Shown here: positions 52,772-54,081 of the stretch, piece after piece | Layout: the number at the start of each line of letters is the position of its first letter | Position numbering within the stretch: the first letter of the stretch is position 1 | Source of the DNA: Octopus vulgaris | Taxonomy: Eukaryota | Assembly (NCBI GenBank): GCA_951406725.2 | Contig: OX597834.1 | Location: 38,564,001 to 38,628,000, forward strand | DNA length: 64,000 bases | Direction of reading: 5' to 3' | Made by a program: the position numbers and the translations under genes | The notes under the pieces: model-generated | The model's input: only the letters and a program-made list of their open reading frames with translations | Databases searched by the model: none | Told to the model about the DNA's origin: nothing

Positions 52772-52872
52772 TGTATGTATGTATGCATGTATGTATGTAT
52801 ATATATATATATATATATATATGAAAAAACAAGTAAAAAATAGAAAATGCTAAAATAATTTTATAGTGAACA

Positions 52873-52916
52873 TTTCAGTACCGGTTTCGGTCATTTTGAG
52901 ACCTTTTCAACTGTAA
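52873..52916 (-). ncRNA. Second copy of the U3-A8 hammerhead
   Basis: Exact reverse complement of 53918-53961. Confidence 0.75.
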
Positions 52917-53917
52917 CGATTAAATAATTAAATTTAGAAAAATTAGAAGAAAAGTTTTTTTAAAAGAATATTTCTATAGTAGTGTTCAGATTTAAGTGGC
53001 ATTCTGCCTTTCTCTGACTCCCTTGTTTGCACTTGTGTGTTCGAGGTAGTTGTGAGTTCTTGGTAGGGTAGTAGAGGGAAGGCTGGTGAGGAAAGGGGGT
53101 GGGAGAATCTGGGAGTGCCCTGATGGTCGTATTTTGAATGGTCAGTGGCGGCTGGCAGTCTCAGTTCAATTCAGGATTGTTTATAGAATTAGCGTAGGTG
53201 TTATACTAAAAAACATTAGTGACAAACTTAAGGGGTAGGGGGTGGAGAAGAAGAAGAAGAAGAAGAAGAAGAAGAAGAAGGAGAAGGAGAAGATGATGGT
53301 GATGGTGGTGATGATTATGACGACGATGATGATGATATTTACACCCACTCATATTCTCCCTTCTCTGTTTTTTTCTTCTTCTTCTTCTTCATCATCATCG
53401 TTATCATCATCATCGGCGTCATCATCACACCACCATCATCACCACCATCTTCTCCTTCTCCTTCTTCTTCTTCTTCTTCTTCTTCTTCATCATCATCGTT
53501 ATCATCATCATCGTCGTCATAATCATCACCACCATCACCATCATCTTCTCCTTCTCCTTCTTCTTCTTCTTCTTCTTCTTCTTCTTCTCCACCCCCTACC
53601 CCTTAAGTTTGTCACTAATGTTTTTTAGTATAACACCTACGCTAATTCTATAAACAATCCTGAATTGAACTGAGACTGCCAGCCGCCACTGACCATTCAA
53701 AATACGACCATCAGGGCACTCCCAGATTCTCCCACCCCCCTTTCCTCACCAGCCTTCCCTCTACTACCCTACCAAGAACTCACAACTACCTCGAACACAC
53801 AAGTGCAAACAAGGGAGTCAGAGAAAGGCAGAATGCCACTTAAATCTGAACACTACTATAGAAATATTCTTTTAAAAAACTTTTCTTCTAATTTTTCTAA
53901 ATTTAATTATTTAATCG

Positions 53918-53961
53918 TTACAGTTGAAAAGGTCTCAAAATGACCGAAACCGGTACTGAAA
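53918..53961 (+). ncRNA. Minimal type-I hammerhead ribozyme, U3-A8 variant
   Basis: TTACAG-TTGAAAA-GGTC-TCAAAAT-GACC-GAAA-CCGG-TA-CTGAAA. Stem I CAG/CTG (extendable), stem II GGTC/GACC, palindromic stem III ACCGGT. Predicted cleavage after A53955. Confidence 0.75.
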
Positions 53962-54045
53962 TGTTCACTATAAAATTATTTTAGCATTTTCTATTTTTTA
54001 CTTGTTTTTTCATATATATCAACTCGTGTGTTCCTTTTCACCCTT

Positions 54046-54081
<36 letters not shown>

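Follow-up and report, generated by a model that had tools for sequence, protein, structure and literature searches.

We found that a 1.2-kb fold-back in Octopus vulgaris DNA very probably arose when an autonomous Penelope-like element (PLE), likely a Neptune, inserted head-to-head and 5'-truncated into a (TA)n tract, and that its two arms were likely made from one uncut RNA with both nicked target strands serving as primers. Each arm is a 3' end, truncated on its 5' side, of an autonomous PLE of 4.43 kb; the fold-back is not a separate non-autonomous element. The fold-back lies in a stretch of 64,000 nucleotides, called the window here. Positions below are those of the window unless they are given as positions of the 4,433-nt element unit.

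The left arm (52815-53337, minus strand) and the right arm (53500-54019, plus strand) align over 524 columns with no substitutions, and the only differences are three indels (a T, a G/C and an AGA unit). The original prediction was of arms that differ only by one GAA unit; the near-identity holds, but the differences number three. Each arm reads TTACAG, TTGAAAA, GGTC-loop-GACC, GAAA, CCGG, TA and CTGAAA, and both motifs face outward, as predicted for a fold-back with twin motifs. Comparison with other family members indicated that the right arm starts at 53335, not at 53500. That is, the 162-nt "spacer" (53338-53499, plus strand) is family 3' UTR sequence, present only in the longer arm and therefore unpaired. 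In unit positions, the window contains 3647-4433 in forward orientation (53335-54053, plus strand; a tail-bearing copy of the 3' UTR/pseudo-LTR) and about 3849-4399 in inverted orientation (52815-53337, minus strand; a tail-less copy), joined through ATA (53335-53337), a 3-nt microhomology at the inversion junction. The tail-bearing copy begins about 90 nt past the stop codon of the frame encoding the reverse transcriptase and endonuclease (RT-EN) and so has no coding sequence. The locus is therefore a non-coding piece left from an element that codes for protein.

The ends of the fold-back also agreed with the prediction. The unpaired extension of about 30 bp on one arm is a 31-nt PLE tail (54020-54050, plus strand), found on the right arm only, and (TA)n borders both ends, at 52798-52822 (partly within the outer end of the inverted arm) and at 54050-54079. 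Next to the tail is an internal CATATATAT site (54011-54019, plus strand) at which tail-less copies end and which is likely a second priming site. To the left of the fold-back is an older inverted repeat (52025-52124 and 52231-52330; 100 nt at 84% identity).

Three of the fetched arm loci lie 4.4 kb apart on one contig (G000:C9) and form a head-to-tail array with a unit of 4,433 nt. In this unit, ORF1 (411 aa) overlaps a frame of 784 aa that encodes RT and GIY-YIG domains. In locus L031, the 784-aa frame matched Pfam RVT_1 with E 3.5e-8 and, just under the cut-off, GIY-YIG with E 3.8e-4. It has the motifs DKG, YLDD and GIY..YIG with two cysteines, and its RT-EN linker, CGRPNCGIC at residue 650, has the form CX4CxxC. 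ORF1 matched no Pfam family and had no usable match in the Atlas. A pattern search of the genome found 41 exact tail-to-ORF1 junctions. Searching with the RT-EN frame gave 510 relatives among 7,996 scored candidates, the best of them 57-61% identical; a metagenome scan with a single protein gave no match. Some of the RT-EN relatives are in records with bacterial titles (L194-L210; P0029, P0072, P0074, P0077, P0078 and P0092), which are likely contaminated with host DNA.

EN+ PLEs are recognized by an RT followed by GIY-YIG, by tandem or partial-tandem arrays that form pseudo-LTRs, by an inverted 5'-truncated copy with a 30-40-nt tail on one side and by a hammerhead motif in the pseudo-LTR. We found each of these in the family, with GIY-YIG just under the Pfam cut-off as above. 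The linker fits the CX2-5CxxC type of Neptune, which Nematis shares, and the family has the Neptune preference for (TA)n targets, although the search pattern for tail-less ends partly presupposes it. The family likely belongs to the Neptune clade, a placement made by motifs rather than by a reference tree. The available text of PMC8557442 describes Neptune elements that share the RT with C-terminal GIY-YIG, the CX2-5CxxC linker and the hammerhead near the 3' end; they too favor (TA)n, form tandem arrays and have an inverted 5'-truncated copy and a tail of 30-40 nt at one end. That text gives no structural difference from the window family. An ORF1 with a frameshift is optional in the elements described there, which resembles the arrangement found here. 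A Neptune with two long ORFs appears in the part of PMC12602865 available to us, and further PLE literature includes PMC6765202 and PMC6431247.

Programmed -1 frameshifting is likely at a conserved TTTTTTA (T6A) site, judging from its position and recurrence. This slippery heptamer is at the end of ORF1 (unit 1222-1228; L031, minus strand), in the -1 frame of RT-EN. The heptamer recurs in L103, L104 and the outside loci L114, L115, L117, L120, L122, L124, L153 and L164. Among 45 outside homolog loci with N-terminal cover, eight had TTTTTTA in the RT-EN -1 frame and none had it in the other two frames. By eye it is also present in L121, and L116 and L194 have G as the last base instead. ORF1 homologs were found at 8 outside loci. 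Folding of the sequence 3' of the family's T6A site predicted no stable or stimulatory structure.

The family is numerous in the genome, which is 2.8 Gb and rich in microsatellites. Searching with the arm gave 2,463 candidates, and all 40 that were scored were 99-100% identical. The arm was present in 30 of 30 loci fetched. As judged in printed stretches, 28 of the other 29 loci visibly extend upstream past the breakpoint in the window; L011 is shorter. A pattern for the family's hammerhead flank had 2,141 matches in the genome (none for the reversed control), so that the motif is no product of chance, and the core TTGAAAA was present in all 100 of those listed, in keeping with the predicted conservation of the core among copies. 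Among these first 100 listed matches, 46 were in divergent pairs (23 pairs within 10 kb) and none in convergent pairs. Exact patterns for the youngest subfamily found 221 tail-less and 175 tail-bearing ends. Among the ends listed on C1-C7 (93 tail-less and 71 tail-bearing), 42 of the 93 tail-less ends had a divergent tail-bearing partner within 12 kb. There were no pairs of two tail-less ends and no convergent pairs in this set, and the three pairs of two tail-bearing ends each had an internal tandem junction. The part of the original prediction that placed the fold-back as a young PLE product with an inverted partial pseudo-LTR was right.

The same prediction took the fold-back to be a non-autonomous parasite, and this did not hold up. 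We compared 29 inverted loci (9 from earlier fetches and 20 chosen from the shorter pairs). Left ends were TA-rich at all 29. Arm lengths ranged from 53 to 2,218 nt, and many arms, like the family itself, extend upstream into RT-EN. An element moving as a unit would have shared ends and a shared internal junction, or would occur as short tandem units; here the pair of breakpoints differs at each of the 29 loci, and neither the 53337/53338 junction nor the arm lengths of the window were found at any of the other 28. The near-identical arms, the lack of coding sequence, the motif at each end and a predicted hairpin of -954 kcal/mol that pairs every hammerhead position are what one would expect of a 1.2-kb parasite mobilized as a unit, with selection acting on two ribozymes and a dsRNA switch. 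Nevertheless, with the junction private to the window, with coding source arrays of the family that look intact, and with true non-autonomous hammerhead repeats in this genome that are different (tandem units of about 360 bp), such a parasite is largely refuted and we consider it very improbable. It is even harder to credit that the fold-back is an assembly chimera. Long palindromes are known assembly hazards, and the junction in the window was not bridged in raw data of four other runs, in which repeats were skipped. Against this, the asymmetric one-tail layout recurs at 42 listed pairs and in other families (L104 and L112), three indels separate the arms, the end from 54019 to (TA)n is present as a loose end in short-read contigs (21 in X19 and 10 in X16), and head-to-head joints are present in contigs of other runs. 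As an architecture, then, the fold-back is not an artefact of assembly.

How might an insertion with two inverted arms and one tail form? We somewhat favor a mechanism in which the element's endonuclease would nick both strands of a (TA)n tract, each 3'-OH would prime at one or other of two TA-like sites on the RNA, separated by 31-34 nt (the end of the tail and the internal CATATATAT site), and both cDNAs would stop early and then be joined, in the window through the 3-nt microhomology. Junctions at the 29 inverted loci mostly have 0-6 nt of overlap or short inserts. Arms of the same locus differed at 14 of 7,535 unmasked sites, compared to 0.45% between loci. Eleven variants were common to both arms (six family polymorphisms and five private to a locus), and no family polymorphism was discordant between arms of the same locus. 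The strict rule of one tail per insertion and the variants shared by the arms point to one RNA template for both arms, most simply one that was primed twice, at two TA-like sites. On both arms the sequence continues past the hammerhead cut site, by 64-98 nt. Priming at two sites on one RNA fits results in vitro with an anole PLE, as described in the available part of PMC11167929: the protein cuts and extends both target strands, and its RT starts at two sites that bound the tail, without a need for hammerhead cleavage. A point against it is that the start sites of the anole element are not homologous to the target, whereas here TA microhomology appears to be involved.

Twin priming on one RNA is not the only way to account for these arms. 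Fold-back of cDNA, the use of two RNAs from a single source locus, or gene conversion would each give shared variants too, and the last of these could also raise the concordance of the arms. Second arms that consist of the tail alone, which twin priming might produce, are rare: one (L046) among 23 resolved loci, and none in the genome by a pattern that catches about half of such junctions and excludes L046; the control for this pattern matched normal sequence and so carries no information. The serious rival is cDNA fold-back with later deletion, in which first-strand cDNA would copy itself as far as the internal TA site and some of the palindromes would later lose their centers. It is possible, and several observations suit it. 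The breakpoints of the two arms are within 25 nt of each other at 8 of 29 loci (2.2 expected; reached in 9 of 100,000 permutations), a coincidence that we count for twin priming as well, and 8 of 29 loci are near-perfect palindromes. L048 and L067 share their turning point, a natural mini-hairpin, and the turn of L078 is at a short inverted repeat. The five locus-private variants are common to both arms, the tail arm is the longer one in the window, as self-copying would predict, and self-priming has been suggested for rotifer PLEs (PMC3846280, in the part available). However, either arm can be the longer one (12 vs 9 loci). The tail-less arm is longer by >25 nt at 9 of 29 loci, where fold-back of a tail-primed cDNA would need a later deletion, and L046 carries a tail-only arm. 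We regard fold-back as the weaker explanation and retain twin priming below.

Each arm carries a minimal type-I hammerhead motif, at 52873-52916 on the minus strand (U3 at 52910; predicted cut after 52879) and at 53918-53961 on the plus strand (U3 at 53924; predicted cut after A53955). The core consists of a U3-A8 pair, UGA, GAAA, a GUA triplet and stems I and II. In the right arm, stem I (TTACAG/CTGAAA) has 5 of 6 pairs, stem II has 4 bp and stem III is the palindrome ACCGGT. As RNA, ACCGGU forms a self-duplex predicted at -8.3 kcal/mol, and its loop is forbidden in a monomer. HH9 was the sole hammerhead match in Rfam for both motifs, at 19.7 bits compared to a gathering score of 52. The predicted motif is thus the minimal type-I hammerhead with palindromic stem III that had been proposed.

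U3-A8 is the common core in this genome. With ACCGGT fixed as stem III and a control pattern for each search, we counted 11,746 U3-A8 cores (control 125), 334 C3-G8 (control 48), 352 C3-A8 (control 59) and 450 U3-G8 (control 104). As had been predicted, a search with CUGANGA would miss the motif. Some U3-G8 families are amplified (L103 and L108-L110) and there is a tandem C3-A8 family (L099). Families whose RT is 55-58% identical to that of the window family have U3-A8 or U3-G8 cores at the same 3' position, and since U3-A8 is common to families with about 57% RT identity, it is old. Beside outside PLE homologs, 32 of 36 motifs are C3-G8, 3 are U3-A8, 1 is C3-A8 and none is U3-G8; the nearest of these homologs (43-48% RT identity; L115 and L119-L121) have C3-G8. 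Positions 3 and 8 change together, so the proposed double compensatory change is real at the level of the clade; it is also lineage-wide and old rather than recent or private to this copy, and the U3-G8 and C3-A8 families depart from it. In 16 hand-picked family representatives, UGA, GAAA and the palindromic stem III are retained and stems I and II covary, and pairing exceeded that of shuffled sequences for stem I (82 vs 51.3) and stem II (37 vs 27.0), with none of 20,000 shuffles reaching either value (uncorrected for kinship).

Several other hammerhead-bearing repeats were seen. Many of the listed C3-G8 matches are retrozyme-type tandem repeats of about 360 bp. L094 (G000:C1:20001500-20005300), L095 and L099 are of this type, with C3-G8 in the first two and C3-A8 in L099, and dispersed relatives (L090 and L092) have U3-A8. 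L094 is arranged head-to-head as in PLE insertions, which fits mobilization by PLEs. A second U3-A8 motif in the window (63845-63876, plus strand; stem-loop II GTATACAC) belongs to another PLE family, whose sequence continues to about 63990 and ends in (TA)n. In L103 (G000:C1:70848000-70853500), a U3-G8 PLE lies directly behind the hammerhead of the window family, apparently a 3'-end insertion of one PLE into another. L104, L106, L112 and L113, from other families, have a similar inverted layout, and their tails share C(A/T)CGTG with the tail of the window family.

Does the motif cut? We think it reasonably likely that the U3-A8 hammerhead cuts only weakly, would need a dimer or the element's protein to do so, acts at most on tandem transcripts of source copies and is a passenger in the window. 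Of 38 junctions examined, 37 upstream pseudo-LTRs could be resolved; none starts at the cut site and 34 run through it, which, like the 64-98 nt retained past that site, speaks against routine cutting. Fourteen apparent starts clustered at unit 4038 reflected an indel against the reference, and one at 4333 was the edge of the fetched sequence. Folding 3' of the cut site predicted no stable structure (z -0.52). The lack of starts at the cut site would also suit a motif that does not cut and is kept as a structure that binds protein or positions RT, with drift to U and A in an AT-rich genome. The sequence 3' of the cut site is kept on both arms at 29 of 29 inverted loci, amplified U3-G8 and tandem C3-A8 families exist, and stem III cannot close as a monomer. 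On the other hand, the conserved core and stems persist in the 16 representatives, positions 3 and 8 change together beside outside homologs, and a ligated circular template would likewise leave no ends at the cut site. We consider a purely structural role doubtful and prefer the weak ribozyme. It had also been proposed that a read-through transcript would sequester the ribozyme as a self-regulating dsRNA switch. Folding does predict that read-through RNA would pair the whole motif, but a selected switch is unsupported because in any one transcript only one of the two motifs is in the sense orientation and the arms, dead-end truncations, are of random length. With twin motifs on opposite strands there is no dimer within one transcript.

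These pieces can be put together in a more ambitious scheme, which we think rather unlikely as a whole. An RT-endonuclease dimer would carry out obligatory, coupled twin priming on one RNA at TA-matched sites 31-34 nt apart, so that each inverted insertion would have exactly one tail; a selected, protein-gated, weak U3-A8 ribozyme would keep this template uncut, with the 360-bp retrozymes mostly C3-G8 for efficient cleavage; and RT-EN would be made as an ORF1 fusion through -1 frameshifting at T6A.

Parts of this biology are already published. In the parts of the papers available, PLEs are described with U3-A8 cores, with (TA)n targets, with truncated copies in inverted orientation and with a tail of 30-40 nt on one side. 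The Cercyon PLE of Schistosoma mansoni (PMC4209133, available part) likewise has U3-A8 cores (about 1,300 matches), palindromic stem III and hammerhead pairs on opposite strands, there 100-700 bp apart, and its minimal hammerheads have low activity and only as dimers. In contrast to Cercyon, where stem II is 7-8 bp, stem II here is 2-4 bp, and U3-A8 exceeds C3-G8 by about 35 to 1 for the ACCGGT pattern. Pen2a, a Penelope of Adineta vaga, has a head-to-head inverted pseudo-LTR with an optional 31-bp tail (PMC3846280), and the anole Poseidon PAc has two RT start sites bounding the tail and a hammerhead that is dispensable for insertion in vitro (PMC11167929). As far as the available text of these two papers goes, both are single-ORF Penelope/Poseidon elements. 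In the window family the two start sites are each TA-like and fit the (TA)n target. Non-LTR retrozymes, in the accessible parts of PMC7229834 and bioRxiv 10.64898/2026.07.22.740005, are also non-coding and PLE-associated and have a type-I hammerhead, but they have a sequence of their own, in head-to-tail repeats of 170-400 nt, and the window locus is a fragment of a coding element. The available part of PMC13282606 does not mention hammerheads. At the level of titles and abstracts, we found no one-RNA twin-priming model and no genome-wide dominance of U3-A8; figures and supplements may list such motifs or the frameshift site.

All frames of at least 110 aa in the window, viewed by eye for a host gene, look like repeats or transposon fragments. 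They include what we take, by eye, to be fragments of a mariner-type transposase (4523-4858, plus strand), a GIY-YIG endonuclease (11574-12023, minus strand), a PIF1-type helicase (16697-17194, plus strand) and a LINE C-terminus (37113-37811, minus strand). Rfam miRNA matches in the window were microsatellite noise.

In itself the window locus is unremarkable, since it is a dead copy from a retrotransposon class that is already known. The value is in the family. Because it is young and numerous and has source arrays that look intact, two open questions about PLEs become testable: how the inverted, one-tailed insertion arises and what the hammerhead does. Searches based on CUGANGA miss most hammerhead-like motifs in this genome. 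In addition, extrapolation at 23 pairs per 100 motifs gives several hundred inverted pairs of this kind, which could produce long dsRNA if transcribed through.
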